Shown here: positions 2,774-17,179 of the stretch, one piece after another
Position numbering within the stretch: position 1 is the stretch's first letter
Layout: every line of letters starts with the position of its first letter
Assembly (NCBI GenBank): GCA_026692735.1
Contig: JAPLOD010000620.1
Location: forward strand, 1 to 23,093
From: Planctomycetota bacterium
GTDB taxonomy: Bacteria; Planctomycetota; SZUA-567; H5-PLA8
Direction: 5' to 3'
DNA length: 23,093 nucleotides
Notes under the pieces: model-generated
Told to the model about the DNA's origin: nothing
The model's input: only the letters and a program-made list of their open reading frames with translations
Databases searched by the model: none
Position numbers and translations under genes: made by a program

Positions 2774-4531
2774 CTACTGCTGGAAGAAGAGCTCATCCAG
2801 GTCCGGCGCCGTGCCGAAGCTCGTCAGCGCTTCCGAATAGCGGTAGTAGACTTCCAGGCACAGCGCGCCCAGCGCCGTCGTGTACACGCGGCCGGCGGCG
2901 GTGGCCCAGTGATCGCCCTTCGGGTCCCAGCTTCCGGCGTTGTCGCCTTCGCGGCACTGGTTCTCCAGCAGCACGTCGCGGATGCGCTGGTTCCACCAGA
3001 TGCGGTACTCGCCGCCCATGTTGTGCATGGCGTACGTGGCGTAGTACCAGTAGTAGAAGTCCTTGTTGTTCCACGACGGCGGCCTGGCGCGCGTCAGCTC
3101 GGCGCCCTTCACCAGCAGGTGGTTCTTCACGCCCATGCCGTTGAACTGCCGGATCAGCATGCCCGCGGAGGTGAGGGCGGGGTGGCTATTGGATTCGTAC
3201 TGCTGTCCGGGCTGGAACTGGTAGGTGACGACGCCGTTGGAGTCCTTGCTCGCGCCTTGGTCTGTCACGCTGTCCACGTACGAGAGCGCCTGTGAGAACA
3301 CCGCGTGATCGAACTTCAACTGCGCCAGCTTCGCCGTCTTCAGCGCCTGGATGAACCAGGCGGTAACCGACATGTCAGTGTCCTGTGACTTCGGCTTGTA
3401 GCGCCAGCCGCCGTCGGCGCTCACCGATTTCTCGCAGAACAGCACGGCCTTCTGCGCGGCCTGGCCGATGCGTTCATCGCGCGCGCGCCCGTACGCTTCA
3501 CACAGCGCGATGGTGCAGATCGCGTGAGTGTACATCAGGTGCGCGGCGTCCCCCTTGCCGGCGGCGACCGCGCCATCGTCGCGCTGGCTGCGCAGCAGGG
3601 CCTCGACGCCGCGCAGGACGTTGCGGGTGTACTCGCCCTTGCGCGTCGTGTGCCCGCCGCCCATGAAGGCCAGCAGTGCAAGCCCCGTGTCGGCCAGGCT
3701 GGCGCTCTTCTCGCCCTCGAACTTCTCCGCCAGCCACAGGCCGTCGGCCTCCTGATGCGCGGCCAGCCAATGCAGACCGGAATCAACCGACGACTTGGTC
3801 TTCACATCGCCGAACCGCGACATCACCCGGAAGAACTCGCCCGTGCCGTGCAGGTTGATGTTCGCCGGTCCCAGCTTGCCGATGGACGGCGCATCCTGGT
3901 CGCCGAACGCGCGGGGCATGATGCGCAACGCGCGCCCGGGACGCGGCCCGGCGTTGATGAAGTGCGTCGCGGGTTTGTCGCGCGGCGTGGGGTTGTCGTA
4001 CTTGAAGATGTCGGCGGGTGCGCCCGCGCGGGCATCCGCGGCGATCGGGTTGATGGCGTAGGCCACCGTATCGGTGACCTGCGAGATCTCCTGCGGCGCG
4101 TCGTCAATGCTGATCTCCGTCCCTCCGACTTCGATGCGCGGCGTGTCTATGGTGACGTTGGTGCTCTGGATGACCTCCTGCGCTTGCGCGGCCTCGGCCG
4201 CGCCGGGGTTCGTCGTGATGTGGATATCCGGCCGCTCTTCCTGCCGCCAGGCCGTGTCCGCCGCCGCTTCCGGCATGTCCACCGTGTGTTCCTGCACGAT
4301 CTCGCGGACGGGGTCGCGGATCCGGAACTCCTCCACCGCGTGCTCCTGGACGGCGAACTCGAACTCCGCCGGTTTCTTCAGCGGCGATTCAGTCCGCACC
4401 GCCACACGCCACACCGCTGCCGCGGCGCAGACGATGCCGATGATGAGCGCGCCGATGGTGAGCGCGCGCTTGTCGAAGATGGCGTCTTCGGCCCCTTGTG
4501 GCGGCCTGCCGGTGCTGCCTGTCTGCGCCAT
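2774..4531 (-). CDS. Membrane-anchored protein with acidic/Pro-Ala-rich linker and C-terminal prenyltransferase/squalene-cyclase-type (QW-repeat, alpha/alpha-toroid) domain; occupies the TonB position of an exbB-exbD operon
   Basis: 585-aa ORF. N-terminal hydrophobic segment LTIGALIIGIVCAAAAVW (signal anchor). About 200 aa of low-complexity acidic/Pro/Ala linker. C-terminal repeats with Q-x-x-DG-x-W motifs (QEADGLW, QRDDGAV, SADGGWRY) typical of terpene cyclase/prenyltransferase beta-subunit repeats. Lies 46 nt downstream of exbD on the same strand. Confidence 0.7.
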   Translation of the reverse strand: MAQTGSTGRPPQGAEDAIFDKRALTIGALIIGIVCAAAAVWRVAVRTESPLKKPAEFEFAVQEHAVEEFRIRDPVREIVQEHTVDMPEAAADTAWRQEERPDIHITTNPGAAEAAQAQEVIQSTNVTIDTPRIEVGGTEISIDDAPQEISQVTDTVAYAINPIAADARAGAPADIFKYDNPTPRDKPATHFINAGPRPGRALRIMPRAFGDQDAPSIGKLGPANINLHGTGEFFRVMSRFGDVKTKSSVDSGLHWLAAHQEADGLWLAEKFEGEKSASLADTGLALLAFMGGGHTTRKGEYTRNVLRGVEALLRSQRDDGAVAAGKGDAAHLMYTHAICTIALCEAYGRARDERIGQAAQKAVLFCEKSVSADGGWRYKPKSQDTDMSVTAWFIQALKTAKLAQLKFDHAVFSQALSYVDSVTDQGASKDSNGVVTYQFQPGQQYESNSHPALTSAGMLIRQFNGMGVKNHLLVKGAELTRARPPSWNNKDFYYWYYATYAMHNMGGEYRIWWNQRIRDVLLENQCREGDNAGSWDPKGDHWATAAGRVYTTALGALCLEVYYRYSEALTSFGTAPDLDELFFQQ

Positions 4532-4577
4532 AGCCTTCCGCTCCCGTCCGCCTCGTGGAACGAGCTTTCCAGCCCGC

Positions 4578-5012
4578 CTACTGTGCCTCGCGGATCTCGA
4601 CCGTGGCCGAGATCTTGGTGATGCCCGCCTGCGCGCAGCAACCCATCACGGCCGCGATGTGCTCCCATTTCACGTTCCTGTCGCCGCGGATCACGACGGC
4701 CTGGTTGACGTTCCTGACCTGCGCCCGGCTGAGGTTGGCGGTCAGGGCCGGCAGCGTGACCTGCTGGTTCTCCACGTGGTAGTACGCCCGTCCGCCCGGC
4801 AGGTTCCGGACATTGACAACGATCGGGCGCGAAGGCGGCGTCTTCACCTTCAATGCTTTGCCCTGCGTGGGCAGGTCAATCGAGAGGTCCTGCTCCATGG
4901 ACTCAACGAACGATGAGCACACCAGCAGGAAGAGGATGATCGCAAAGATGGCGTCCACGAGCGGCGTCATGTCAATGCGCATCTCCTCCTCGATCTCACG
5001 GTCGAACATCAT
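4578..5012 (-). CDS. exbD: ExbD/TolR family biopolymer transport protein
   Basis: 144 aa. Short N-terminus, then a single TM containing the conserved TPLVDxxFxxLLFLL motif (MTPLVDAIFAIILFLLV), then a periplasmic domain. Start ATGATG overlaps the stop of the upstream exbB (ATGA overlap at 5009-5012). Confidence 0.85.
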   Translation of the reverse strand: MMFDREIEEEMRIDMTPLVDAIFAIILFLLVCSSFVESMEQDLSIDLPTQGKALKVKTPPSRPIVVNVRNLPGGRAYYHVENQQVTLPALTANLSRAQVRNVNQAVVIRGDRNVKWEHIAAVMGCCAQAGITKISATVEIREAQ

Positions 5013-6298
5013 GGGCGCGCCTCCTTCGCCGGGTGTTTCGCCTTGGCGCTCGGCTCGTCCTCGCTGCCGTCCTTCTCCGCGTCCTCGTCTTTCTCTTCGG
5101 ACTCTTCCTTCGTGACAGTCTTCCTGGCCTTGGCAGGACGCTCCTCCGCCTCTTCCTCCTTTTCGCCCGCCTCGGCATCCTCGTCCACGGCGGCCTTCCT
5201 GGCCTTGGTGCGCTGTGGCGGAGGCTTCTCTTCGGCGTCGTTCTTCTGTTCTTCGTCAGCGTCCGGTTTCGGGCTCTTGCCGCTGCGCTTCAGCACGGCA
5301 ATGCGGTGCAGGAACTGCTCGGCGATCGTCTCGCAGTCGCCGATGATGCTCGTCAGCCGCTGGTTGAAGATGAAGTACAGGAACAGCGAGGGGATGGCCA
5401 CGATAAGCGCGGAGGCCGTCGAGAACAGCTTCACGCGGATGCCCGCCGCCAGCGCTGCGGCCTTGGCGGCTCCGGTGGCGCTCGCCACGGCGTCGAAGAC
5501 GATCACCATGCCGACGATGGTGCCGAGCAGGCCCAGCAGCGGCGCCGCGACCGCAATGAGATTCAGGGCCTTCACCGTTATCCTCAGACGCTGAATCTGC
5601 TTCGATGCCGCGATCGAGCAGCGCTCCTTGAGCTCCTCGACCGTCGAGGTGTCGTACCGGTCCGCCAGCGCCCTGGCCACATGCGGCAGCAGTCCCTTTG
5701 CCTGGAGGGCGAGTTCCTCGAACTTCTTCACGTCGCCCTTTTCCAGCGCCCTGCTTGCCGCTTCGACGAACTGCGGCGGACACTGCCGGTTCTTGCGGTA
5801 GATCAGGATGCTGTTGACGGCGAGGATGATGGCGAAGAACCCCAGCAGGGCGATGGGGTGCAGGAACGGCCCGCCCATGACGTACAGGTCCAGCAGCGTC
5901 AGGCGCGCAGCGATCGTCAGCGGCCCGGCGCCCGACACGCGCACGAGCCTTTGGCCCGGCTCGCCCTTCCCCGATGTGCGCTGCACGACAAAAGCCCCGC
6001 CCGAAATGCCTTGCGACTTGATGCTCGAGATCTTGAAGAAGGTCTTCTCGTCACTGCGGTAGACGTCGCCGAGCGCCAGCGTCGCGATGTTGTCGTCAGT
6101 GTTGATCGTGAACTCTTTGTTGTCGCCGGCGCCGGCCTCCTCCATCTCCGTCTTCAGGATTTCGGCCTTGTCCTTGTCGGCGAGGATGGACTCGAGATCG
6201 AGCTTGTCCGGCGGCTTCTCGGCGGGGAATGCTCCGGGCAGCGCGGCCAGCATCAGCAGTGCCGCCGTCCATGCAACCGTTCCAGTCCGTCTGCGCAT
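5009..6298 (-). CDS. exbB: MotA/TolQ/ExbB proton-channel family protein with long N-terminal periplasmic domain and charged KE-rich C-terminal tail
   Basis: Chosen start is the ATG at 6296-6298 (MRRRTGTVAWTAALLMLAALPGAF signal peptide), with GGGAGGA 5 nt upstream. The ORF-track start at 6421 lacks a signal peptide and an RBS. Three TMs carry the ExbB/TolQ signature (...LLGLLGTIVGMV..F...). The C-terminal ~100 aa are a polyampholyte (EEKPPPQRTKARK...EEEAEERPAKARK...). Confidence 0.8.
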   Translation of the reverse strand: MRRRTGTVAWTAALLMLAALPGAFPAEKPPDKLDLESILADKDKAEILKTEMEEAGAGDNKEFTINTDDNIATLALGDVYRSDEKTFFKISSIKSQGISGGAFVVQRTSGKGEPGQRLVRVSGAGPLTIAARLTLLDLYVMGGPFLHPIALLGFFAIILAVNSILIYRKNRQCPPQFVEAASRALEKGDVKKFEELALQAKGLLPHVARALADRYDTSTVEELKERCSIAASKQIQRLRITVKALNLIAVAAPLLGLLGTIVGMVIVFDAVASATGAAKAAALAAGIRVKLFSTASALIVAIPSLFLYFIFNQRLTSIIGDCETIAEQFLHRIAVLKRSGKSPKPDADEEQKNDAEEKPPPQRTKARKAAVDEDAEAGEKEEEAEERPAKARKTVTKEESEEKDEDAEKDGSEDEPSAKAKHPAKEARP

Positions 6299-6329
6299 CA
6301 CTGTTCCTCCCTTACGCTGCGGCCGCCCC

Positions 6330-9300
6330 TCACTGTTTCGCCTTCGCCAGCTCTTTTCGCACTTCCTGCAACAGGCGCTCTGCCTCCGCGACCACTGCGG
6401 CGCGGCCTTTGCGGAACTCACGCGTCACCCGCTCGAGATTCCCGTTTGCCTGGGCCCATTTCTGCAGCGTGACGCAGCACTTGGCCAGCGCCAGACAGGA
6501 GCTCTCGCGCGCGTGGAGCTGCACGCTCTTCTCAAGACAGTTGAAGGCCTCCTGCGTCGCCGGGGGCTTGCGGCTCAGCTCGTACTGCGCGAGCTGGTAC
6601 AGGGCGTCCGCGCGCACGTCCTCGTACGTGTCGCTTGCGGCCAGGCTCTTGAGCCTGCTCACGCCCGCATCCGTCTTGCCCTGGCCCACCTGCGCCATCG
6701 CCGCGTACAGGTCCATGCGCGGGCGGCGCTCCGAGTTTGGCCATTCGGCCACGAAATTCCTGTAGATCAGCTCGAGCTCCGGCCAGTTCTTCGTCTCGCA
6801 GTAGCCGGTCGCGGCATAGACGTAGGCTTCCTCGATGGCCTCGAACTTCGGATGCTCGCGGATCAGGGCGTGGATCAGCTTCACGCCGCCCGCGTGGTCG
6901 TCCCGGTTGTAGGCGCTCTGCCCGGCCATGAAGAGCGCCTTCTCGCGCGACTTGTTCTCGCGCAGCGCCGGATCGTCGAGGAACGGCGAAAGGGTCCTCA
7001 CCACCTTCTCCCATTGCTCCTGCTTCCAGTACAGGAAGCTGAGCGCGTAGCGGATCTCCCCCAGGTCCAGGTCCTTCGGCGGGTCCATCCGCAAGCCGTC
7101 CCAGTTGTGGCTGCTCTGACGCAGCCGTTCGCTCTTCGGCAGAGGGGCGGGGCTGTTGTTCCCATCAACGGCCGGCGGACCGTACTCGTCAAGCAGCGTC
7201 GCGTACGCCTCGATTGCCTCGTCGTAGCACTCCGCCTTGCCGGCATGATAGCCGAGCAGCTTCAGCGCCGAGGGGCGGAACTTGTCATCGCGCAGGCCGC
7301 TGATGCACGGCTTGTACAGCTCAATCATCTTCTGCGTGTCGCCCAGCGCGATGTACTCCCGCCCCAGCGCGTAGCGCGCGACCTGGTACATCTCGTCCGG
7401 CGGCTCGCTGTCGTCGCTCTTGCCCTTCTTCTGCGGCTTGTTGTGCTTGTTGAGGTCAATCGGGTAGCGGTCTATGTACGCCGCGAAGCACCCCGCCGCC
7501 GACTGGTGGTCGCCGCCCTCGCTGAAGAACTGCCCGGCCTTCAGCATGGCGGTCTTCACGTAGTGTTGAACGTCGGCGTACTGGGGCTCACGGCTGACCC
7601 AGGCGTGGAACTGCCGGTTGTGCTTCCTGTCCGTGAGGCCGAGCGAAGGGCTGACCACGTTCCTCCAGAGCGCCTCCGCCGCCGCGCGCTTGGCGTCCTT
7701 GCTCTGGCCTTTTTCGCCCTTCACCGCCTCCATGGCCAGCCAGTACTGCGCTTCGGCCACGTACTTGTCCTGGTGGCTCATGTTCTTCACAAGCCACTCA
7801 TAAGCCTTCACCATGTTCTGCTCGTGGCCCTGGACGTACCAGCAGTGAGCCACGCGCACGGCGGCCTCATAGACCTGCAGGACCTTCGCATCCACGTTCT
7901 GGGGCTTCCACGGGCCACCCGCGACATCGCCGTTGGCGTCCAGCTTCGGACCGTAAATCTGGATGTACTCCCGGTAGGCCTTCGCCGCCGCGGAGTAGTC
8001 TTTCTTCACGAAAGAGAGCTCGGCGATGTAGAAGCGGGCCTCCCGCGCTTCGTCCGACAGTTGCCCTTTCTCCGCGATCAGCTTCTGCAGGATGGCAATG
8101 CTTCTCTCGGTCAGATCGCCGCTGTCGGCCCGCGTGATCATGGCTTTCAGGTAGTCGAGGCTTTTGAGGTCGCTCTTGCCCGGCTTTCTGTCAGGCGGTT
8201 CCTGCGCGGCGGCCAGTTTCCACAGTTGCTCGTAGGTGTCGTAGGATTTCTTCTTGTCACCGGCGCGTTCGGCGAAGATGGCGATGTTCTCGAGAGCGGT
8301 GAGCTTGTACGGGGTGTTGGCGTCAATGGCCAGGGCCTGCTCGAAGGCCTTGACCGCCTCCGCGCAGTCGTCCCGCGTGACTCCGTTGCCATGGCACATG
8401 CCGATCTGCAGGTGGATGTACGACTCAAGACTGCCCTGTGCGAGAATGTCCCGCGGGTACTTCTTCAGGATTCCCTCGTAGTCGGACACGACTGTGGCGA
8501 AGCCCTTGCGCGTCCGGATGGCCTCGCTGAGCTTGCGGTCGGCGAGAAATACCTCGCCTTCGGCGGCGATCACCGTGCCGGCATTGGCGGCGACCTTCTT
8601 GCGGACCTGCTCAAGGTCCTCCTCCGTGTACGTCGCCTCGCGGCTGGTGCCGGCCTCGTCGAGCGCGGCCTGGCATGTTAGGATCCTGCCGGTGATGTTC
8701 AGGCGCGTGCCAAGCTGCCGGAGCTGCATGTAGCTCTCGAGCGCGGGGCCCCATTTCTTCTGCCGGAAGTAGTACTCGCCGATGCGGAAGTAACACTGTT
8801 CCAGGATCTCGCTTTTGCGTTCGCTGTCGCACTCGCGCGCCAGCTTGGCGGCTTCCTCGTAGCGCTCGACGGCCTTCGGCATGTCGCCCAGCTCGCTGAA
8901 GTAGATGTCGGCCGACTGCAGCACGGCCTCGGCCGCCAGCCCGCGCTTCTGGAACTCGGGCGTCTTGCCGATGCGGTCGAAGACTTCGATGGCCTTCGTA
9001 AAATCCTTCCGGTCGCGGGCGCACATCCCCAGGATGTAGCTCCCGGCCATGGCCTCGACTGTCTTGGGGTACCGGGCCTTGAGCTGTTCGCTGACGGAAA
9101 TGGCCTTGTCGAACTTCTGCTGCTTGCGGAACAGGTCGGCGAGCTGGAGCAGGAGCTCGGGCACGCTCTTGTTGTTGGGATACTGCGCCGCCAGATCCTC
9201 GATCGCGGCGATCGCCAGGTCCACCTTCTCGGCCTTCAGCCACAGGAGCGCGAGCTTGTACGCGGCCTGCTCAGCCAGCGGCGAGTCCTTCTTGCGCTTG

Positions 9301-9788
9301 AGGATGTTCAGCTTGGCCGCGGCCTCATCGTACTTGCCTTTCAGGGCGTAGTAGCCGCTGCACAGACTCTGTACCTCGTCCTCATACAGGCCCGCGCCGT
9401 CGGCGAGCATCTTCTCGAAGGTGGCGATGGCCTCGTCATACTTCTTGACGGACGCGTACAGCTTCCCCAGCATGAAGAACGCATCCTGGCGGTTCCTGAA
9501 CTGCTTCTTCTCGCTCTGCGTCGCCACCTGCAGATGCTTGATGCAGTCGTCAAGTGCTCCGAGGCTCTCCAGGGCCTTGGCCAGGCGGTAGTGGACATCA
9601 ACGACCTGCGTGTGATCGGGGTACTTCCGCAGGAACTCGTCAAAGACGCCGGCCGCCTTGGCCGTGTCGCCGCTCTTCTCAAGCTGGTACGCCTGCTTCA
9701 GCAGTTCCTCCGGCGTCTCGGCGGCCTGGCAGACGCCGGCGGCGAGGACCAAAGCTGCGATGAACGCCGACGTTCTCACGCGCGTCAC
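6330..9788 (-). CDS. Large secreted tetratricopeptide-repeat (TPR) protein
   Basis: 1152 aa. GTG start at 9786-9788 overlaps the TGA of the upstream gene (GTGA). Signal peptide MTRVRTSAFIAALVLAAGVCQAAE. Dozens of 34-aa TPR-like units with A/Y/L heptad pattern (e.g. ...AFFMLGKLYASVKKYDEAIATFEKML...). Confidence 0.75.
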   Translation of the reverse strand: MTRVRTSAFIAALVLAAGVCQAAETPEELLKQAYQLEKSGDTAKAAGVFDEFLRKYPDHTQVVDVHYRLAKALESLGALDDCIKHLQVATQSEKKQFRNRQDAFFMLGKLYASVKKYDEAIATFEKMLADGAGLYEDEVQSLCSGYYALKGKYDEAAAKLNILKRKKDSPLAEQAAYKLALLWLKAEKVDLAIAAIEDLAAQYPNNKSVPELLLQLADLFRKQQKFDKAISVSEQLKARYPKTVEAMAGSYILGMCARDRKDFTKAIEVFDRIGKTPEFQKRGLAAEAVLQSADIYFSELGDMPKAVERYEEAAKLARECDSERKSEILEQCYFRIGEYYFRQKKWGPALESYMQLRQLGTRLNITGRILTCQAALDEAGTSREATYTEEDLEQVRKKVAANAGTVIAAEGEVFLADRKLSEAIRTRKGFATVVSDYEGILKKYPRDILAQGSLESYIHLQIGMCHGNGVTRDDCAEAVKAFEQALAIDANTPYKLTALENIAIFAERAGDKKKSYDTYEQLWKLAAAQEPPDRKPGKSDLKSLDYLKAMITRADSGDLTERSIAILQKLIAEKGQLSDEAREARFYIAELSFVKKDYSAAAKAYREYIQIYGPKLDANGDVAGGPWKPQNVDAKVLQVYEAAVRVAHCWYVQGHEQNMVKAYEWLVKNMSHQDKYVAEAQYWLAMEAVKGEKGQSKDAKRAAAEALWRNVVSPSLGLTDRKHNRQFHAWVSREPQYADVQHYVKTAMLKAGQFFSEGGDHQSAAGCFAAYIDRYPIDLNKHNKPQKKGKSDDSEPPDEMYQVARYALGREYIALGDTQKMIELYKPCISGLRDDKFRPSALKLLGYHAGKAECYDEAIEAYATLLDEYGPPAVDGNNSPAPLPKSERLRQSSHNWDGLRMDPPKDLDLGEIRYALSFLYWKQEQWEKVVRTLSPFLDDPALRENKSREKALFMAGQSAYNRDDHAGGVKLIHALIREHPKFEAIEEAYVYAATGYCETKNWPELELIYRNFVAEWPNSERRPRMDLYAAMAQVGQGKTDAGVSRLKSLAASDTYEDVRADALYQLAQYELSRKPPATQEAFNCLEKSVQLHARESSCLALAKCCVTLQKWAQANGNLERVTREFRKGRAAVVAEAERLLQEVRKELAKAKQ

Positions 9789-12700
9789 TCCGTCGTGTTG
9801 GGCCGCGCCTGCGGCTTCACGTCTCCGCCGGCCGGCTTCTCCGGCAGCGCCGGCTGTGTTTCCTGGTAGAGCGGGTTCTTCCTGATCAACTCCACGTATG
9901 GAGACAGCGGATATCGCTCCACAATCTGCTTGAAGCGTTCGCGCGCCTTGTCGCGGAGGTCCAGGGCCTGGAAGGTAAGGCCGAGCGCATAGGTGGCCTT
10001 CACGGATGCTTCGGTCGAGCGCGTGGTGAAGAGCACGTACTCGAACGCCTCCTTGGCCTTGTCAAAGCTTCGCGCGGCGAGATGCGTCGCGCCGACCAGG
10101 TAGCTGGCCTCGCCGGCCAGCGCTTCGTCGGGCGAATTCGACGCGGCAGCCAGCTTCTGGATCGCCTCGGCCGTGCGGCCCTTCTTGAGGTCCACGAGCG
10201 CCATCACGTAGTAGATCCACGTGGCTCTTGCCAGAGCCGCGCCCGGCAGTTTCTGCCGCTCGCCGTCCGAGAGCTTCTCATACTCCAGTATGAAACGCTG
10301 CGCGTCCTCCGGGAACTCGCGCTCGGCGGCCTTGTCCAGGGCGAAGTTCAGGCAAAACACCATGAGCCGGTCAGTGAACTGCCCGATGTCGGTGGTATCC
10401 TCCTTGACCAGCACGGAGTACTGCGCCAGCGCCCCTTGCAGGTCGCCGTCTCTGAACAGCGAGCGGGCATAGGCTTCCTGGACGCCGGCCCGTTCGCCGA
10501 GGTCCTTCACGGACGCCAGCGCGGACCTGTACAGTTCGGCGGCCTTCTTGTAGTTGCACAGATCGAAATGGATGCTCGCCATTTCCAGGTCGAACTTGTA
10601 CTGCTCAAGGTCCGAGCCGCTCAGCGCCTTCAGTTCGTCCAGGGCGGCCAGTACGTTGCGGTAGTCTTTCAGTCCCTTGTAGATGTCCAGCTTCAGAGCG
10701 TAGATGTCCTTTTTGCGCGGCGTGTTGGGGAAGCGCGTCAGCAGCGCATTGCAGTTCTCGAGCGCCTGTTCCATCAGGTTGTCCTTGGCATAGACCGTGG
10801 CCAGGCGGAAGTACGCCTTCTCCGCAATCTCCTTCTGGACGTTCTCGCCGCGCACGCTCAGCCCGAGGTTCTGCAGGACCTCGCACAACACGTCGAAGCC
10901 GGCCACGTTCTTGAAGGCATCACGGTTGACGGGCGCATCAACCGCCTGAGCGGACGGATCGAGACGCACGGCCACATGCGAGTTCAGGTGCACGAAATCG
11001 GCGAAGTCGGCGAGCTTCATGTCCTTGAACTGCCCGCTGAGCTGCTCGCTGAGCGCGAACAGCAGGTCGTACGAGAACCGCTTCTTCAACTCCTCCTTTG
11101 GCGGCAGCGCCTCGCCGGCGGCCGGTTTGTAGAGCACCAGCGACTCCTCAGCGGCGCGGGCATAATACGCGCAGGCGTCGTGGAACTTGCGTTCGTACTC
11201 GAAGACCCAGCCCAGCCAGAAGCAGGCGTGGTAGTAGTACTCGTTGCCGGGGCTGTCGAAGACCTTCAGGTACTCCCGCAGGACGGCCTTCATCTTGGCG
11301 TAGTCGTTCTGGTTGTAGAAGTTCAGCGCCAGCGCGAAGAGCGACTTCTCGCCGTATTTGCTCTTGGGGTCAACTCTCCTGATCTTGTTGAAGGCGTCCT
11401 TGGCCCTTTCGTAGAGTTCCGTTGATACGTCGCGCGGCACGATCCGGTAGCGCAGTCCCTTTTCGGCGAGGGCGGCGGCCAGGACCTTCGCGCAGCTCAC
11501 GTTGTTGTTCCCGAGCGCGGCGGGCGCCTGCTTGAACTCGGCGGCGAGCTTGGCGTCCTTCTCGATCCCCTCGGCCCACAGGATCCTCGTCTGGCCCAGT
11601 TCCTCCACGCGCGCCAGGACCGTGTGCAGCATCACTCCCTGGCGTTCGCGGGCCCGATGGACCTTGTCCCACGCGCCGTAACTGCATGTCAGGGGAGCGA
11701 AGCGTTTGTCCGCAGACTTCTCATCGTAAATCTCGATGGGCTTGCTGGCCTCTTCCTGGGAAATCGGGGGACACGATTCCCAATTCAGTCCGCCTGGACG
11801 ACCACGAATGACTGAATTGGGATCGTGTCCCCCGATTTCCCTCAGCGTCGGCTGGCCATCGGTCAGGCCGATGTCGAGCGCCAGGCGGTGGCGGCTCAGG
11901 TCCAGGATCTGCGAGAGGAACTGCGCCACGGTGGCCTTCCCATCGCGCAGAGTGACGCGTCTTGTCTCGACGTATTCGGCGACCGAGTCCTTGCCTTTTT
12001 GCGGCGACCACACGAACGGCACGCCGCTGAGCTTGGACAGGTACACCAGGGCGTCGCGCGCGGTCATGTTGGCCCTGGGCCATTTGGCAGTGACCTCTTT
12101 CTGCAGCGGCCTATATGTCTTGAGCAGGTCGTCGCCGATAGCCAGCGTTTCGGCTGGGTACACGTAAATGCCGTAACTGGTCTCGCCCTTCTTCTGTTGC
12201 GCCTCATACGCCGCCTTGCTGTAGAGGCTGCCGGCCATGTACAGGGCCTTCAGCAGGTCCTCGTCGCCCAGCTCGCGGCCGCGGTCGGCCACGCCCTCAT
12301 ACGCCTTGGCAGCTTCGGCGTAGCGCCCCTGCTGCCGATACCACTCAGCCAGTTCCACGGCCAGTCTCTGGAAGCGTGGGTCGGCGCCGAAATCGTTCTC
12401 AAGTTCGCCGAAGCGCTTTTCCGCCGCGGCTTTGTCCTCTTTCCTCTCGGACTTGAACATGGCTTCGAGCAGGCCGATCTCGATCTGCTTGACCATGTCC
12501 AGCCTCTTTGGGTCAACCAGGCGCTTGGCCGCCTCAAAGCAGCGGAGCGCCTTTTCCGCATCGGCCTTCTCGAGGTATGTTGGCGCATTCCTGCCGCCCG
12601 CGGTTGCATGCGTGCCCACGCTGGCCAGCTCACAGACGCCGCGCTGATAGAGGATCTCCGTCCTCAACGCCTTCCAGGCGTCATCGGAAAGCCCTTTCCC

Positions 12701-14221
12701 CGTGTAGACCGACTCGTCCAGCAGCCTGTCGCAGGCGCCGGCGCAGGCGGCATTGTTGGGCGCCTGCACGACCTTCTTCGTCTTCTCGTCAACGATCTGT
12801 CTGGCGTAGTAGCGCATCAGGCTCATCAGGGCCTGAGCGCCCTCCGCGGAACCTTTCTTCTGCTCGGCCGTCTTCTGCCACGCGTTCGCGCCGTCGTCGC
12901 CGCTGGCCGCCGTGCCGACATCCACTCCCTTGGTGAGGAGGACCTGCACCTTCTCGCGCGCCTGCCTGGCTTCCGCGGAGAGAGGATACTTTGCGATCAA
13001 CTGGCCGAAGTGCGCCGCGGCGTTCTGGTGCGCTTTCGCCGCCGCCGCCTGGTCCTGGGTCTTGCTGGCTTCGTCCATGGCGATGCAGCCGAGGTTGAAC
13101 AACGCCGTGGCGGCATGCTCCGGGTTGCCGAGCGCATTGGTGTAGGCTTTGACGGCCTCGGGAATCACGCCGTGCTCGCGGTAGATTTCGCCCAGAGCGC
13201 ACTGTGCCTGAGCGTAGCCGCGGCTCTCGGCGCCGACCTTCTTCAGATATTCCTCGACCTTGGCGGCATTCGAGTCCTTTCTGCTCTTCTCGCACATGCC
13301 GAGGACCAGGTATATGTCGTGCTTCAGGGGGCCGTCGGGAACCGTGTCGAGGAACGCCTTGTCGTTCAGGTATCCCATGGCTTTACCGTAGTCCTGCTGC
13401 TCATAGGCAGCCTTGGCGAGCAGCAGCCGCGCCTTCATCTTCAGTTCCGGGTCATAGCGGACATTCTCGAGCCACTTGGCGGCGTCGGCGTACCGTTTCT
13501 TCTCGATACAGAGAACGCCGAGCTGAATGGCCGCGTTGTCGTGGTACTTCTCCAGACCCGCGGGGATCGGCAGCTTGTCCTGCTGGTATTCCGCGATGAC
13601 GTGGCGGAAATTGAGGACGACGCGCGTGAGGATCTCCTCGGCCTTTTCGGGCTGGCCCGTTTTGCGGTAGAACTCCGTGAGGATGGCGTCGGCTTCCATG
13701 CCCGTCGCGTAGCCGTTCTTCTTCAGGTCTGCCTGGACGCGTTGGTGCAGGCTCTCCAGTTCGCCTTGAGCGTCCTTGCCCCGGTTCGCAAGGATGGCCA
13801 TCTTGAACACCAGCAGCTTTGCGGCACGCTGGTCGTTGGGGAAGCGTTTGCAGAACGCGTCAATGCGTTCAGCCGCATTCGTGTAGTCGTTCATCCGGTA
13901 CGCGGTGCACGCCAGGCGGAAGGCTGCGGCGGCCTTGTCGTTCTCGTCGGTGAGGTTCTCCGCCGCCTTGATGAGGCACGTCTTCGCCTGGTCGAATTGC
14001 TTGGTCAGGTAGTAGCATTCGCCAAGCATCAGATACTGCGTGGCGGCCCCGGCCTCCGCTTTCCCACGAACGTCTTCCAGCAGAACCTTGATGGCGTCGT
14101 TGTACTGGCGGCTCTTCATGAGCCCCGACGCGCGCGAGACGGCTTCGCTGCCGGATGAGCCGGTACTGAGAACACAGAGAACCACGGGGAGCAGGCCAGG
14201 CCACAAGGAGCGTAAGCGCAT
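9785..14221 (-). CDS. Very large secreted TPR-repeat protein
   Basis: Start chosen at the ATG at 14219-14221 (MRLRSLWPGLLPVVLCVLSTGSSGSEA signal peptide); the ORF-track start at 14329 adds 36 aa without a signal. About 1478 aa of TPR-like repeats. Stop overlaps the start of the downstream TPR gene, which implies translational coupling. Confidence 0.7.
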   Translation of the reverse strand: MRLRSLWPGLLPVVLCVLSTGSSGSEAVSRASGLMKSRQYNDAIKVLLEDVRGKAEAGAATQYLMLGECYYLTKQFDQAKTCLIKAAENLTDENDKAAAAFRLACTAYRMNDYTNAAERIDAFCKRFPNDQRAAKLLVFKMAILANRGKDAQGELESLHQRVQADLKKNGYATGMEADAILTEFYRKTGQPEKAEEILTRVVLNFRHVIAEYQQDKLPIPAGLEKYHDNAAIQLGVLCIEKKRYADAAKWLENVRYDPELKMKARLLLAKAAYEQQDYGKAMGYLNDKAFLDTVPDGPLKHDIYLVLGMCEKSRKDSNAAKVEEYLKKVGAESRGYAQAQCALGEIYREHGVIPEAVKAYTNALGNPEHAATALFNLGCIAMDEASKTQDQAAAAKAHQNAAAHFGQLIAKYPLSAEARQAREKVQVLLTKGVDVGTAASGDDGANAWQKTAEQKKGSAEGAQALMSLMRYYARQIVDEKTKKVVQAPNNAACAGACDRLLDESVYTGKGLSDDAWKALRTEILYQRGVCELASVGTHATAGGRNAPTYLEKADAEKALRCFEAAKRLVDPKRLDMVKQIEIGLLEAMFKSERKEDKAAAEKRFGELENDFGADPRFQRLAVELAEWYRQQGRYAEAAKAYEGVADRGRELGDEDLLKALYMAGSLYSKAAYEAQQKKGETSYGIYVYPAETLAIGDDLLKTYRPLQKEVTAKWPRANMTARDALVYLSKLSGVPFVWSPQKGKDSVAEYVETRRVTLRDGKATVAQFLSQILDLSRHRLALDIGLTDGQPTLREIGGHDPNSVIRGRPGGLNWESCPPISQEEASKPIEIYDEKSADKRFAPLTCSYGAWDKVHRARERQGVMLHTVLARVEELGQTRILWAEGIEKDAKLAAEFKQAPAALGNNNVSCAKVLAAALAEKGLRYRIVPRDVSTELYERAKDAFNKIRRVDPKSKYGEKSLFALALNFYNQNDYAKMKAVLREYLKVFDSPGNEYYYHACFWLGWVFEYERKFHDACAYYARAAEESLVLYKPAAGEALPPKEELKKRFSYDLLFALSEQLSGQFKDMKLADFADFVHLNSHVAVRLDPSAQAVDAPVNRDAFKNVAGFDVLCEVLQNLGLSVRGENVQKEIAEKAYFRLATVYAKDNLMEQALENCNALLTRFPNTPRKKDIYALKLDIYKGLKDYRNVLAALDELKALSGSDLEQYKFDLEMASIHFDLCNYKKAAELYRSALASVKDLGERAGVQEAYARSLFRDGDLQGALAQYSVLVKEDTTDIGQFTDRLMVFCLNFALDKAAEREFPEDAQRFILEYEKLSDGERQKLPGAALARATWIYYVMALVDLKKGRTAEAIQKLAAASNSPDEALAGEASYLVGATHLAARSFDKAKEAFEYVLFTTRSTEASVKATYALGLTFQALDLRDKARERFKQIVERYPLSPYVELIRKNPLYQETQPALPEKPAGGDVKPQARPNTTE

Positions 14222-14726: not shown

Positions 14727-14763
14727 AGCCTTCCGGGGTGCGAACCTCGGAAGGCTTTTTGTT
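14727..14763 (+). terminator. Rho-independent terminator (stem CCTTCCG/CGGAAGG followed by CTTTTTGTT)
   Basis: AGCCTTCCG-GGGTGCGAACCT-CGGAAGGCT followed by TTTTTGTT on the + strand. In the minus orientation there is no T-tract after the stem. Confidence 0.5.
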
Positions 14764-14956
14764 GCGTCGCGGAAGGAGGCACAGGCAATCGGCAGGAACA
14801 GGCGCTGTGAGAAAGGCCCCAGGCGCGGCAACGCCTGAGGCCTGAAGAGAGCCCGAGCGTCTCCGGTGAAGAGATGAACACAGTGACAGCGTCACTGTGC
14901 GCGGGGCCTCTTTGTCTTCAGAACGTAGCGCGAAAGGAGGGACAGTCAACACGGAC

Positions 14957-15030
14957 GCGGATGTAGCTCAATGGCAGAGTGCGAGCGTGCCAGGCTCGAG
15001 ACGCGGGTCCAACTCCCGCCTTCCGCTCCA
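14957..15030 (+). tRNA. tRNA-Gly (anticodon GCC), CCA encoded
   Basis: Manual fold. Acceptor GCGGATG/CTTCCGC (1 mismatch). D-arm TAGCTCAATGGCAGAG. Anticodon stem CGAGC/GCTCG with loop GTGCCAG. T-arm GCGGGTCCAACTCCCGC. 74 nt. Confidence 0.6.
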
Positions 15031-15041
15031 AAGTTGCACGC

Positions 15042-15112
15042 GCCGCGGTGTCACGGCGGCCTGCCTCTCTTGTAAGGAGGCGGCGCGGGTTCGACTCCCG
15101 CCTGCGGCTCCA
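15042..15112 (+). tRNA. tRNA-Thr-like (anticodon TGT), 71 nt with reduced D-arm
   Basis: Acceptor GCCGCGG/CTGCGGC. Anticodon stem CCTCT/GGAGG with loop CTTGTAA. T-arm GCGGGTTCGACTCCCGC. Discriminator T plus CCA. D region only 15 nt and does not fold canonically. Confidence 0.4.
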
Positions 15113-15142
15113 ACGAACGAAGGAGGTGCTTTCGCAAGCGGC

Positions 15143-15214
15143 GCCGCAGTGTGATGGGTCACAAGCCTCTTTCGTAAAGAGGCGGCGCGGGTCCGATTCC
15201 TGCCTGCGGCCCCA
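15143..15214 (+). tRNA. tRNA-Thr-like (anticodon CGT), 72 nt with mini D-arm
   Basis: Acceptor GCCGCAG/CTGCGGC. D region TGTGATGGGTCACAAG (stem GTGA/TCAC, 4-nt loop). Anticodon stem CCTCT/AGAGG with loop TTCGTAA. T-loop TCCGATT. CCA encoded. Confidence 0.4.
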
Positions 15215-15233
15215 GAACGGAAGGCACTTCAGA

Positions 15234-15307
15234 TGCGGTGTGGCGAAACGGTATCGTGCCTGCCTGTTACGCAGGAGTTGGAGGTCCGAGTCCTCCCGCC
15301 GCAGCCA
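15234..15307 (+). tRNA. tRNA-Asn (anticodon GTT)
   Basis: Acceptor TGCGGTG/CGCCGCA. D-stem GCGA/TCGT. Anticodon stem CCTGC/GCAGG with loop CTGTTAC. T-arm GGAGGTCCGAGTCCTCC. Discriminator G plus CCA. Confidence 0.6.
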
Positions 15308-15319
15308 GATAACAGGAGT

Positions 15320-15395
15320 GGCCCTGTCGTCTAGCGGTTGAGGACGCCGGCCTTTCAAGCCGGAAACCGGGGTTCGAGTCCCCGTGGGGCTGCCA
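15320..15395 (+). tRNA. tRNA-Glu (anticodon TTC)
   Basis: Glu-type body (TCGTCTAGCGGTTGAGGAC, 3-bp D-stem). Anticodon stem CCGGC/GCCGG with loop CTTTCAA. T-arm CGGGGTTCGAGTCCCCG. Acceptor pairs with 3 G-U. CCA encoded. Confidence 0.55.
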
Positions 15396-15490
15396 ACGAT
15401 TGCGGATTGAGGATTGACGATTGCGGATTGGCGTGGGTGTGATTGGGGACGTGTGTGGGACAATCCGCGATCCGCAATCTGACATCCGAA
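15396..15490. repeat. tRNA-3'-flanking palindromic heptad-repeat element, copy 1
   Basis: 5' arm ACGATTGCGGATTGAGGATTGACGATTGCGGATTGG (tandem GATTGNG heptads). 3' arm CAATCCGCGATCCGCAATCTGACATCCGAA is the imperfect reverse complement. Begins 1 nt after the CCA of tRNA-Glu. Confidence 0.7.
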
Positions 15491-15506
15491 GTGGGCAAAG
15501 CGGAGC

Positions 15507-15581
15507 GTCTCTGTCGGCTAATCAGCAGGCCGCCAGATCCTCGATCTGGAAACGCGGGTGCGAACCCCGCCGGAGACGCCA
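15507..15581 (+). tRNA. Noncanonical tRNA (possible Glu, anticodon CTC); C33, no G18G19, T-loop TGCGAAC
   Basis: Acceptor GTCTCTG/CGGAGAC. D-loop AATCAGCA lacks GG. Anticodon stem CCAGA/TCTGG with loop TCCTCGA (C at position 33). T-arm GCGGGTGCGAACCCCGC (G55). CCA encoded. Confidence 0.4.
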
Positions 15582-15658
15582 ACGATTGCGGATTGCGGAT
15601 TGACGATTGCGGATTGGTTTGCCGGGCAATCCAAAATCGCAAATCCAAAATCCAAAAT
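15582..15658. repeat. Palindromic heptad-repeat element, copy 2 (divergent 3' arm with CCAAAAT repeats)
   Basis: ACGATTGCGGATTGCGGATTGACGATTGCGGATTGG ... CAATCCAAAATCGCAAATCCAAAATCCAAAAT. Starts 1 nt after the CCA of the preceding tRNA. Confidence 0.65.
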
Positions 15659-15663
15659 GGGAA

Positions 15664-15737
15664 GGGGCGATGGTGAAACAGGATCACACGACCTCCGCAC
15701 GGTCGCGTTTCGGGTGCAAGTCCCGATCGCTCCACCA
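15664..15737 (+). tRNA. tRNA-Ala (anticodon CGC) with G3-U70; C33 and G55 variants
   Basis: Acceptor GGGGCGA/TCGCTCC gives G3-T70, the Ala identity pair. D-stem GTGA/TCAC with loop AACAGGA. Anticodon stem CGACC/GGTCG with loop TCCGCAC. T-arm TCGGGTGCAAGTCCCGA. Discriminator A plus CCA. Confidence 0.5.
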
Positions 15738-15740
15738 CAC

Positions 15741-15829
15741 GGATAGCGAACCGGCCAAGTGGCCGGCACCGTCTCGAAAACGGTTGGTCGCTTAACCGCG
15801 ATGAGGACCAGGACCTCCGCTATCCGCCA
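15741..15829 (+). tRNA. Class II tRNA-Ser (anticodon CGA) with aberrant T-loop (ACCAGGA); possibly nonfunctional
   Basis: Perfect 7-bp acceptor GGATAGC/GCTATCC, discriminator G, CCA. Anticodon arm ACCGTCTCGAAAACGGT matches the bacterial Ser(CGA) arm. Long variable arm. The T-arm lacks TTCRA. 89 nt. Confidence 0.45.
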
Positions 15830-15871
15830 GATTCGAGGAGCAGAGGGCCGGCAAGACGCCGGCGGCACAAC

Positions 15872-15962
15872 GGAAGCGCGCCAGAGCCAGGAGAGCTGGG
15901 CCGGTTTGCTACACCGGGGTCTGAAAGATGATCAGCGGGTTCGAATCCCGCCGCTTCCGCCA
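15872..15962 (+). tRNA. Class II tRNA-Ser (anticodon GCT)
   Basis: Acceptor GGAAGCG/CGCTTCC perfect. D-stem CCAG/CTGG. Anticodon stem CCGGT/ACCGG with loop TTGCTAC. 17-nt variable arm. T-arm GCGGGTTCGAATCCCGC. Discriminator G plus CCA. 91 nt. Confidence 0.6.
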
Positions 15963-15979
15963 GAAAGGAGAACGCGAGT

Positions 15980-16055
15980 GCGTCCGTAGCTCGAGCGGCA
16001 GAGCAACCGGCTCTTAACCGGTTGGGTGTGGGTTCAAGCCCCACCGGGCGCACCA
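15980..16055 (+). tRNA. tRNA-Lys (anticodon CTT)
   Basis: Acceptor GCGTCCG/CGGGCGC. TAGCTCGAGCGGCAGAGC D-arm. Anticodon stem ACCGG/CCGGT with loop CTCTTAA. T-arm GTGGGTTCAAGCCCCAC. Discriminator A plus CCA. Confidence 0.65.
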
Positions 16056-16057
16056 GA

Positions 16058-16128
16058 TAATTGCGGGTTGAGGATCTCGGATTGTGGATTGGGCTGACGC
16101 GAACACGAATGCGGAATCCGCAATCCGA
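16058..16128. repeat. Palindromic heptad-repeat element, copy 3 (degenerate)
   Basis: TAATTGCGGGTTGAGGATCTCGGATTGTGGATTGGG ... GAATGCGGAATCCGCAATCCGAGG. Arms recognisable but more diverged than the other copies. Confidence 0.5.
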
Positions 16129-16137
16129 GGTTGGAGC

Positions 16138-16214
16138 GCCGCAGTAGCCGAACAGGCACAGGCGCCTGCCTTAGAAGCAGGAGAGTGTGGGTTCAAATCA
16201 CACCTGCGGCACCA
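16138..16214 (+). tRNA. tRNA of uncertain identity: class-I structure with anticodon TAG (a Leu anticodon on a short-variable-arm body)
   Basis: Acceptor GCCGCAG/CTGCGGC, discriminator A, CCA. Anticodon stem CCTGC/GCAGG with loop CTTAGAA. 5-nt variable loop. T-arm GTGGGTTCAAATCACAC with one G-A mismatch. Confidence 0.4.
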
Positions 16215-16300
16215 AACGCACGCGGACTGAGCGCGCGAGGCTTGGCGGTTTCCTCCCGATGGCGGGAGGTGGTAGCGGGGGCGATGCGAAACAGAAAGGA

Positions 16301-16376
16301 GCGTTCGTAGCTCGAGTGGCAGAGCAGCCGGCTTTTAACCGGCAGGGTGTGGGTTCGAGCCCCACCGAGCGCACCA
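16301..16376 (+). tRNA. tRNA-Lys (anticodon TTT)
   Basis: Near-duplicate of the Lys(CTT) gene. Anticodon stem GCCGG/CCGGC with loop CTTTTAA. T-arm GTGGGTTCGAGCCCCAC. CCA encoded. Confidence 0.65.
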
Positions 16377-16378
16377 AG

Positions 16379-16474
16379 TGATTGCGGATTGGGGATTGAC
16401 GATTGCGGATTGGCTCGTGATGGCACGAGCGGCGTGCTGTTCCAATCCACAATCCGAAATCCGCAATCCGCAAT
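16379..16474. repeat. Palindromic heptad-repeat element, copy 4 (different central segment)
   Basis: GTGATTGCGGATTGGGGATTGACGATTGCGGATTGG-CTCGTGATGGCACGAGCGGCGTGCTG-TTCCAATCCACAATCCGAAATCCGCAATCCGCAAT. Confidence 0.65.
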
Positions 16475-16480
16475 GGAAGT

Positions 16481-16554
16481 TGCCGGGTCGGCCAGCGGTA
16501 GGCCGCCTGACTCTGACTCAGGAAAGCGGGGTTCGAATCCCTGCCCGGCAACCA
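16481..16554 (+). tRNA. tRNA-Gln (anticodon CTG)
   Basis: U1-A72 acceptor TGCCGGG/CCCGGCA. D-stem GGCC/GGCC. Anticodon stem CCTGA/TCAGG with loop CTCTGAC. T-arm CGGGGTTCGAATCCCTG. CCA encoded. Confidence 0.6.
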
Positions 16555-16577
16555 GAACCAGGAGGAGAGTGCTTCGC

Positions 16578-16649
16578 GCGGTCGGAGTGTTCACGGCGGC
16601 ACGCAACCCTTCCAAGGTTGAGGAGCGGGTTCGACTCCTGCCGGCCGCA
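16578..16649 (+). tRNA. tRNA-Gly (anticodon TCC), CCA not encoded
   Basis: Acceptor GCGGTCG/CGGCCGC. Anticodon stem CAACC/GGTTG with loop CTTCCAA. T-arm GCGGGTTCGACTCCTGC. 3' end ...CGGCCGC-A followed by CTT. Confidence 0.55.
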
Positions 16650-16661
16650 CTTAAGACCCAC

Positions 16662-16735
16662 TGGCCTGTCGTCCAGCGGGAGGACACTGGGCTTTGAACC
16701 CGGGGACCGAGGTTCGAATCCTCGCGGGCCAACCA
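16662..16735 (+). tRNA. tRNA-Gln (anticodon TTG)
   Basis: U1-A72 acceptor TGGCCTG/CGGGCCA. Glu/Gln-type D-arm TCGTCCAGCGGGAGGAC. Anticodon loop CTTTGAA. T-arm CGAGGTTCGAATCCTCG. CCA encoded. Confidence 0.6.
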
Positions 16736-16775
16736 GATGGGTGACGGTAAGCCTTTGTGGTGCGTGAGAAGTTGA

Positions 16776-16846
16776 CGGGCATTCGTTCCGGTTGAACGGG
16801 CGAGTCTTATAAACCCGCCGGCCAGGTTCAACTCCTGGATGCCCGA
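16776..16846 (+). pseudogene. tRNA-like element / probable tRNA pseudogene (good acceptor and T-arm, no foldable anticodon arm)
   Basis: Perfect acceptor CGGGCAT/ATGCCCG. D-stem GTTC/GAAC. T-arm CCAGGTTCAACTCCTGG. The anticodon region GGCGAGTCTTATAAACCCGCC gives only a 4-bp stem with a 13-nt loop. No CCA. Confidence 0.3.
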
Positions 16847-16864
16847 GATCGGCAACGGGGACCT

Positions 16865-16940
16865 CGGGGCGTAGCGTAGCGGCGAACGCGCCTGCGTCGG
16901 GAGCAGGAGAACGCTGGTTCGAATCCAGTCGCCCCGACCA
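16865..16940 (+). tRNA. tRNA-Pro (anticodon CGG)
   Basis: C1-G72 acceptor CGGGGCG/CGCCCCG. Anticodon stem CCTGC/GCAGG with loop GTCGGGA (G37). T-arm GCTGGTTCGAATCCAGT. Discriminator A plus CCA. Confidence 0.65.
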
Positions 16941-16963
16941 GACTAGGGAGGTGAAGAGGGAAA

Positions 16964-17041
16964 CGGGATGTAGCTCAGTTTGCGCAGAGCGCCTGGCTTG
17001 GAACCAGGAGGGCGTCGGTTCGAATCCGGCCATCCCGACCA
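16964..17041 (+). tRNA. tRNA-Pro (anticodon TGG)
   Basis: C1-G72 acceptor CGGGATG/CATCCCG. D-arm TAGCTCAGTTTGCGCAGAGC. Anticodon stem CCTGG/CCAGG with loop CTTGGAA. T-arm GTCGGTTCGAATCCGGC. CCA encoded. Confidence 0.6.
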
Positions 17042-17104
17042 GAACAGAACGTGCTGAGTGGAGAGCGACGAGTAGCGAGTGACGGGGAGAGGAGGGGAGG
17101 GCGT

Positions 17105-17179
17105 TGGGCGGTGTTGTAGCGGGCTGCATGTCTGCCTGATACGCAGACGGTGGAGGTCCAACTCCTCCCCGCCCAACCA
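17105..17179 (+). tRNA. tRNA-Ile (anticodon GAT), tentative
   Basis: Acceptor TGGGCGG/CCGCCCA. Anticodon stem TCTGC/GCAGA with loop CTGATAC. T-arm GGAGGTCCAACTCCTCC. D-stem imperfect. CCA encoded. Confidence 0.5.

Follow-up and report, generated by a model that had tools for sequence, protein, structure and literature searches.

A conserved TPR-TPR-ExbB-ExbD-toroid gene module of Planctomycetota as a candidate Ton/Tol-like envelope machine

In a Planctomycetota bacterium (GTDB lineage Bacteria; Planctomycetota; SZUA-567; H5-PLA8), contig JAPLOD010000620.1 of assembly GCA_026692735.1 carries five adjacent minus-strand genes at positions 2774-14221, among them relatives of the motor genes of Ton and Tol systems. 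The whole stretch analysed here, 23,093 nt at positions 1 to 23,093 of the forward strand, is called the window below. A preliminary description of this DNA had proposed that two very large tetratricopeptide repeat (TPR) proteins, ExbB and ExbD are encoded together with a protein of TonB-like topology ending in a toroid of the terpene-cyclase/prenyltransferase type, and had read the cluster as an envelope system driven by the proton-motive force (PMF). The observation was confirmed, and the interpretation is supported, by the searches, structure models and comparisons of related loci reported here. All five open reading frames (ORFs) are present where they had been placed: TPR-A (9785..14221; 1478 aa), with a signal peptide, two TPR arrays and a central non-TPR insert; TPR-B (6330..9788; 1152 aa), a periplasmic protein with a signal peptide and matches to Pfam TPR families; an ExbB/TolQ-like motor subunit (5009..6298; 429 aa; PF01618); an ExbD/TolR-like motor subunit (4578..5012; 144 aa; PF02472, with a transmembrane aspartate); and the toroid-ended protein of TonB/TolA topology (2774..4531; 585 aa). 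Both start/stop overlaps that had been claimed were found, GTGA at 9785-9788 between the TPR-A stop and the TPR-B start and ATGA at 5009-5012 between the exbB stop and the exbD start, as were both gaps, one of 31 nt upstream of the ExbB ATG at 6298, carrying the Shine-Dalgarno sequence AAGGGAGG, and one of 46 nt between exbD and the 585-aa gene. These overlaps and short gaps with Shine-Dalgarno sequences indicate that the five genes form an operon.

The 585-aa protein has a single N-in transmembrane (TM) helix, present in the AlphaFold model (residues 21-48; 4388..4471), a disordered periplasmic linker of 198 aa (residues 49-246; 3794..4387; pLDDT below 50), an (alpha/alpha)6 toroid modelled mostly at pLDDT above 90 (residues 247-566; 2834..3793), and a C-terminal tail, FGxAPDLDELF, which lies outside the toroid and has low pLDDT (residues 567-585; 2777..2833), all on the minus strand. 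A TM helix followed by a disordered linker of about 200 aa is the TonB-like topology that had been claimed, and its N-in orientation is supported by a sizeable subset of orthologues that carry an N-terminal FHA domain and still lie inside TPR-TPR-ExbB-ExbD clusters. FHA domains are cytoplasmic, so these fusions assign the N-terminus to the cytoplasm and the toroid to the periplasm, as in TonB and TolA. The linker is acidic (net charge -10) and high in Ala and Pro, as had been noted, yet it is not featureless: it contains the invariant short motifs EFEF (57-59), EERPDI (99-103), PADIFKYxxPxPRDKP (172-185), AFGDQDAP and GPANINLFGTGDFFR, and its invariant alignment columns are F57, F59, E99, P101, P146, I163, F176, Y178, P183, P198, G210, G218 and G229. 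No Pfam family matched the linker even at E <= 10. In the same alignment, F572, G573, A575, D579 and L581 of the C-terminal tail are invariant, and the toroid domain, built of QW-like repeats, is abundant in invariant Trp, Tyr, Arg and Asp. Among its invariant residues are W255, Q260, W266, Y334, H336, E345, R349, D352, W376, R377, Y378, D386, W392, Y493-Y500, H503, N504, W512-N514, W535, D536, R548 and Y550.

That the C-terminal domain is a QW-motif toroid and not a TonB C-terminal domain was borne out by four approaches. In Pfam, the 585-aa protein matched PF13243 (SQHop_cyclase_C) at E = 8.6e-7, scoring 28.7 bits against a cut-off of 26.1 bits, and TonB_C gave no match at E <= 0.01, which is the outcome that the preliminary description had expected. 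The family profile, searched against the PDB, matched squalene-hopene cyclase (SHC) over a QW repeat at 4.6e-11. The AlphaFold toroid, submitted to Foldseek, retrieved AprG, GH76 mannanases, SHC (3sqc, 8pak) and the thioester-containing domains (TEDs) of complement and alpha-2-macroglobulin (A2M) proteins at E of about 1e-5, with a TM-score of about 0.64 when normalised to the target and about 0.39 when normalised to the full-length query. The best matches include the sugar-binding transaldolase AprG (ranks 1-2), a GH76 mannanase and the CPF_2247 amylase.

Membership of the wider superfamily of SHC, prenyltransferases and A2M TEDs (Pfam clan 6_Hairpin) is thus seen in the QW-type repeats and the toroid fold, but the 585-aa protein differs from its enzymes in having one toroid of about 320 aa where the cyclases have two domains, in lacking the DxDD acid motif and the CGEQ thioester, and in being periplasmic and membrane-tethered. 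Where the cyclases have DxDD, the aligned residues read SDxSVTAW and include only one Asp. A terpene cyclase enzyme was ruled out by this absence, by the single toroid and by cyclase family scores roughly tenfold under the cut-offs (33 vs 322.7 bits for TIGR01787; 27 vs 431 for TIGR01507), and an A2M/complement-type thioester domain by the absence of CGEQ, the Cys of 'ALCEAYG' being not invariant. The invariant Trp, Tyr, Arg and Asp residues and the likeness to carbohydrate-active barrels suggest that the toroid ligand is a glycan or another envelope polymer.

The same residues and fold matches can also be read as those of a membrane-anchored periplasmic sensor or enzyme, glycan-binding, hydrolase-like or isoprenoid-lipid-binding, which would share a pathway with the motor and signal to, or be regulated by, the cytoplasm, without acting as a force transducer. 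Its pocket-type residues, rich in Trp, Tyr, Asp and Arg, are invariant, its top Foldseek matches are sugar-binding AprG and carbohydrate-active GH76 and CPF_2247, its helix in the window lacks the S-x3-H motif discussed below, and related toroids occur on a Ser/Thr-kinase receptor-like protein (P0128) and together with N-terminal FHA domains. However, most orthologues have only about 20 cytoplasmic residues and so could not signal on their own, the toroid gene is next to exbD almost universally, and again in distant paralogues with a TonB anchor, and neither DxDD nor any other recognised catalytic motif is present; a sensor or enzyme is, in our judgement, very improbable.

The two motor subunits match their Pfam families at E = 1.6e-20 (ExbB, PF01618) and 5.2e-21 (ExbD, PF02472). 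Read from the ATG at 6298, ExbB consists of a signal peptide (residues 1-25), a periplasmic N-domain, three TM helices (TM1 at residues 147-167) and an E/K-rich tail. The extra periplasmic N-domain reported in the preliminary description is therefore present, but from the likely start it measures about 120 aa and not about 180 aa. It is conserved among orthologues, unlike the cytoplasmic tail, and has no Pfam match even at E <= 10. The tail, a Glu/Lys/Ala-rich stretch of 93 aa (residues 337-429; window positions 5009-5290, minus strand), is missing or unalignable in orthologues, with 0-4% identity per block. Apart from a weak low-complexity match to this tail, PADLOC found no defence system in the cluster, on which ground an anti-phage defence motor (e.g., Zorya) was rejected. 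ExbB Thr261 (TM2) and Thr295 (TM3), the counterparts of the pore threonines of the family, are kept in at least 95% of 44 orthologues, and the TM-helix residue Asp20 of ExbD is kept in at least 95% of 49; from this conservation the motor looks functional.

Neither subunit belongs to a named equivalog. Among NCBIfam models, TolQ was the best match of ExbB (3.8e-16; 59.5 bits vs a cut-off of 221), ahead of ExbB itself (4e-9; the exbB equivalog scored 36.6 against 206.2), and TolR (1.1e-13; 51.9 bits vs 127) surpassed ExbD (2.2e-9, also below cut-off) for the second subunit. Scores so far under every equivalog cut-off point to a separate branch of the superfamily, and on these profiles the ExbB-like subunit is a superfamily member and not an ExbB orthologue. 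A 2025 survey of MotAB relatives describes ExbB-like proteins with unexplained N-terminal appendages; the five-gene system is not in that survey.

Many Pfam TPR families matched each of the two large proteins (TPR_6 in TPR-B at 2.7e-35). Their TPR content and signal peptides, the latter found in all orthologues as well, agree with the earlier claim of two very large secreted TPR proteins. Read from the ATG at 14221, TPR-A begins with a signal peptide, as its orthologues all do; the gene call of NCBI for this protein (P0267, 1444 aa, 100% identical over 98% of the full-length query) begins 34 codons downstream and omits it (14119-14221, minus strand). The TPR-B orthologues have signal peptides with AxA-type cleavage sites. 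In both families the signal peptides are of the signal peptidase I type and no lipobox Cys is conserved among orthologues, from which TPR-A and TPR-B appear to be soluble periplasmic proteins and not lipoproteins; outer-membrane lipoproteins, as proposed for an ancestral CpoB, were ruled out on this basis. TPR-A is conserved over its whole length in 22 orthologues. Its central insert (residues 680-960; 11342..12184, minus strand) was confidently modelled (pLDDT 86.6) as two alpha/beta domains of the fold shared by secretin N0 domains and the signalling domain of TonB-dependent transducers (STN), in agreement with a sub-threshold Pfam match to STN (2.4e-5). Foldseek taken by itself was not significant, and a homologue search with the insert alone returned nothing above threshold.

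Comparison with other loci indicates that these five genes travel together. Full-length relatives of the 585-aa protein number more than 200 and share 50-89% identity with it, the closest of them being labelled Phycisphaerales or Phycisphaerae. A pattern scan, restricted to one genome per species, gave 68 loci in metagenome-assembled genomes (MAGs) labelled Planctomycetota, Verrucomicrobiota, Lentisphaerae, Victivallales and Kiritimatiellia, and the window proteins were searched against the six-frame ORFs of these loci. The MAG labels are unreliable as taxonomy. Among them, five loci with toroid proteins at 44-66% identity (L008, L060, L006, L029, L020) are labelled 'Akkermansia muciniphila', 'Akkermansia sp.' or 'Candidatus Kuenenia stuttgartiensis'; these labels look unreliable, and ones like 'Akkermansia muciniphila' seem implausible for a module of Planctomycetota type.

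The gene immediately before the toroid gene is exbD in 41 of the 45 loci with enough sequence, and in a 42nd (L056) the arrangement is broken by frameshifts. Of the 27 loci with at least 9 kb upstream, 24 contain the full set of five genes, counting permuted orders; in two loci (L029, L030) the order is ExbB-ExbD-toroid-TPRA-TPRB and linkage is retained. The synteny search suggested earlier thus shows the cluster recurring in MAGs labelled as four lineages of the Planctomycetes-Verrucomicrobia-Chlamydiae (PVC) superphylum, across which toroid protein identity is 44-89%. Beyond the five genes, all-against-all clustering of ORFs from 72 loci found no flanking gene family common to more than four, so that conserved extra genes were rejected; since the flanks are not conserved, the five genes are a self-contained module, which in our reading is specific to the PVC superphylum. 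Several MAGs contain two diverged toroid copies (L031/L038, L035/L059, L034/L036, L047/L052, L018/L021, L019/L053), in which both copies may have motor genes or one stands alone. In two otherwise different loci, a fusion of major facilitator superfamily, acyltransferase and AMP-binding domains, like the LplT/Aas proteins of lysophospholipid recycling, adjoins the toroid gene (L018, 6233-9766; L073, 12881-16315).

Parts of this synteny and of the TPR evidence recall the Tol-Pal system, and a highly divergent version of it, with TolQ, TolR, a TolA replacement and CpoB-like TPR proteins stabilising or constricting the outer membrane at division, would explain several observations. The gene order (motor A, motor B, transducer) is that of tolQ-tolR-tolA in tol operons, the motor subunits are slightly nearer to TolQ and TolR than to ExbB and ExbD, the module is strongly conserved as one unit, as a housekeeping system would be, and both TPR proteins, whose TPR_6-type repeats resemble those of CpoB, score above the cut-off of TIGR02795 (tol_pal_ybgF; 156 and 96 bits vs 90.1). 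These last scores, however, sum 2-3 matched TPR_6 stretches in proteins of 1152 and 1478 aa, about ten times the size of the 119-position model and in one case embedding STN/N0-like domains, and the CpoB equivalog PRK10803 scores 23 against a cut-off of 383. Moreover, no TolB, Pal or YbgC gene is linked to the module in the window or in any annotated locus, the C-terminal domain of the 585-aa protein is not TolA domain III by Pfam, the TolQ and TolR scores fall far under their equivalog cut-offs, and several MAGs have two copies of the module. Divergent Tol-Pal seems to us an unlikely description of this system.

Two loci point in another direction. One (L003, 3055-19355) encodes a secretin, a GspE ATPase, a MORN protein, ExbB, ExbD, an FHA-toroid protein and a 2123-aa protein without a Pfam domain, and the other (L030, 4831-19650) encodes GspE, GspF and a 166-aa ORF upstream of ExbB, ExbD, toroid, TPR-A and TPR-B. 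Such neighbourhoods would fit an accessory motor that energises or gates a secretin-based type II secretion system (T2SS) or a type IV pilus (T4P)-like apparatus, in which the STN/N0-like domains of TPR-A would dock on secretin or GspC-like parts and the FHA domain on a cytoplasmic basal body, as in type III and type VI secretion systems. The secretin-N0 fold of the TPR-A insert and the FHA-fused members of the family, which also match the model of the YscD cytoplasmic domain, are in line with this proposal, but the neighbourhood occurs in only 2 distinct loci of about 55, and no T2SS or T4P family is more widely common to the flanks or present in the window. We consider such an accessory role improbable.

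The toroid domain is far more widespread than the module. HMMER scans of 1.84 billion cluster representatives found it in 16,652, of which only about ten match the profile over its full length. The signature SHLS of TonB and TolA corresponds to an S-x3-H motif in the TM helix. This motif was searched for in the 146 best-scoring new toroid representatives and was present in a hydrophobic helix in 58 of them, mostly as 'PxWxxS-x3-H', against 4/146 in reversed sequences, 0-3/146 when other residue pairs replaced S and H, and 0/31 among TPR proteins. In four loci with Pirellulaceae or Pirellulales labels (L067, L069, L070, L071), distant toroid paralogues with S-x3-H lie directly after ExbB-ExbD, and in one of these (L070) a 420-aa TPR gene is also found upstream. 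Where such clusters include named proteins, these come from Planctomycetota and carry the annotation 'hypothetical' or 'terpene cyclase/mutase family protein'. Together, the anchors and the position of the paralogues behind ExbB-ExbD indicate that a toroid on a TonB-type anchor is a recurrent design, which strongly supports the idea of the preliminary description in general. Two composite toroid proteins were also seen: P0128 (2074 aa), with an N-terminal Ser/Thr kinase, a beta-helix and CarboxypepD_reg, and P0134 (1799 aa), with PD40 (TolB-like) repeats, two toroids and an S-x3-H helix.

Building on the gene content, folds, topology, motor residues and synteny of the module and on the TonB-type anchors of related toroid proteins, the reading that we favour, at a probability of roughly 0.6, is that the five genes encode an envelope machine of Ton/Tol-like kind, apparently undescribed, that runs on the PMF and has a toroid-headed transducer. 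From synteny and architecture we infer that the motor energises the toroid protein. In the proposed mechanism, the ExbB-like and ExbD-like subunits would form a proton-driven inner-membrane motor, for which the 5:2 stoichiometry of the family is assumed. The 585-aa protein would take the role of TonB or TolA, its N-in anchor physically coupled to the motor, its flexible linker of about 200 aa reaching across the periplasm and its non-catalytic toroid presented there, probably as a binding module for a glycan or another envelope ligand. For contact with ExbD, a candidate 'motor box' is the conserved, beta-strand-like EFEF motif just past the helix. The giant TPR proteins may act as scaffolds, probably docking the short motifs of the linker and the acidic DLDELF tail, and the STN/N0-like domains of TPR-A would tie the assembly to an outer-membrane or secretin-type partner. 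Such a machine could serve to maintain the envelope or to divide in the manner of Tol, to transport material at the outer membrane, or to support a T2SS/T4P-like apparatus.

Several findings weigh against this Ton/Tol-like reading. The main internal weakness of the TonB analogy is that the orthogroup of the window has replaced or lost the S-x3-H helix: a regular-expression search found the motif in the TM helices of 0 of 120 orthologues, and the alignment of this helix contains no conserved His or Ser. The helix of the window protein may thus bind the motor differently or not at all. Because the fold match is generic, with hydrolases, cyclases and TED domains retrieved alike, the toroid ligand is a guess. 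No TolB, Pal, TonB-dependent transporter or outer-membrane partner is linked to the module, second toroid genes that stand alone occur (L018, L053), and all relatives come from MAGs or metagenomes.

Set beside the Ton system, the module shares a MotA/ExbB-family subunit with TM threonines, an ExbD-family subunit with a TM aspartate, and a third protein that crosses the membrane once, N-in, and has a long flexible linker and a C-terminal domain that is globular and periplasmic; the S-x3-H anchor is shared by the distant toroid paralogues only. The window module differs in that it has no TonB_C, no S-x3-H and no linked TonB-dependent transporter (none is encoded within the 23-kb window), in that two giant TPR proteins are obligatory partners, and in that its ExbB has a signal peptide and a periplasmic domain of about 120 aa. 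The Agl-Glt gliding motor and the GldLM motor of the type IX secretion system likewise combine TPR proteins and parts that span the periplasm with a PMF motor, TolQR-like or related, but no Glt, Gld or Por homologues are linked to the module, and the PorW/SprE match is confined to the TPRs and scores 70 against a cut-off of 250 bits.

The closest published precedent is the vWA 'force transducer' of PVC bacteria, Bacteroidetes and Proteobacteria (Williams-Jones et al. 2025, PMC12204202). In that work, TM-linker-vWA proteins encoded after TPR-tolQ-tolR-tolR are proposed to transduce force, and a 'motor box' is described for TonB and TolA; toroid, cyclase and prenyl domains are not mentioned (PMC12204202). 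The two systems have in common a TM helix, a disordered linker, a non-TonB globular domain, neighbouring TPR and tolQ/tolR-like genes, and an occurrence in PVC bacteria. The present module has a toroid in place of vWA, one tolR-like gene where the vWA loci have two, and two very large TPR genes; in addition, the vWA proteins keep the SHLS histidine that the window helix lacks. Since features that define the Ton, Tol-Pal, cyclase and vWA-transducer families were looked for and not found, the module does not fall within any of them. A literature search on ExbB, ExbD, TolQ or TonB with toroid or cyclase domains or with Planctomycetes returned no description of the module, which is apparently an undescribed motor-transducer system of the Ton/Tol type whose output domain and scaffold partners are both new.

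Ion-driven 5:2 motors (MotAB, ExbBD, TolQR, AglRQS, GldLM, ZorAB) are a general means of delivering energy across the bacterial periplasm, and every new output module of these motors has brought another envelope process to light. In PVC bacteria, whose envelopes, division and biology of uptake are unusual, the Ton/Tol complement is ill defined. The strongly conserved module, together with a very large toroid family in which TonB-type anchors occur, is a testable candidate for coupling PMF to the outer envelope of this group. We also put forward, more tentatively and at somewhat less than even odds, that toroid-headed, TonB-anchored proteins of Planctomycetota and other PVC bacteria make up a large class of PMF-coupled periplasmic transducers that has so far gone unrecognised, with the module as the Ton/Tol equivalent of the lineage. 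If so, the class would number thousands of clusters that are now annotated 'terpene cyclase/mutase' or hypothetical, a toroid binding glycan or envelope together with N0/STN-bearing TPR scaffolds would replace the TonB_C-TonB-box or TolA-TolB contacts, and the module could underlie envelope maintenance, FtsZ-less division or macromolecule uptake. Thousands of database entries that bear the name 'terpene cyclase/mutase family protein' or 'prenyltransferase/squalene oxidase repeat-containing protein' probably do not represent enzymes of terpenoid metabolism.

In the window itself, the genes that flank the operon are unrelated to the module. To one side, genes convergent with the operon encode a HEAT/F5-8-type-C protein and a Gfo/Idh/MocA oxidoreductase; to the other, 30 tRNA genes form a divergent array. 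Between this array and the start of TPR-A, 735 nt of intergenic DNA contain a strong terminator-like hairpin at 14727-14766 (plus strand), with a 13-bp stem and a T run; no ORF and no Rfam match lies upstream of it. The tRNA array (14957-20955, plus strand) comprises 30 genes by ARAGORN and one further Rfam tRNA at 15507-15578, and represents 18 amino acids, Ala and Asp being missing. It is broken by an SPFH/Band-7 gene and succeeded by an HNH endonuclease gene (18566-19690; 20961-21656), and may be a mobile or phage-derived tRNA island.

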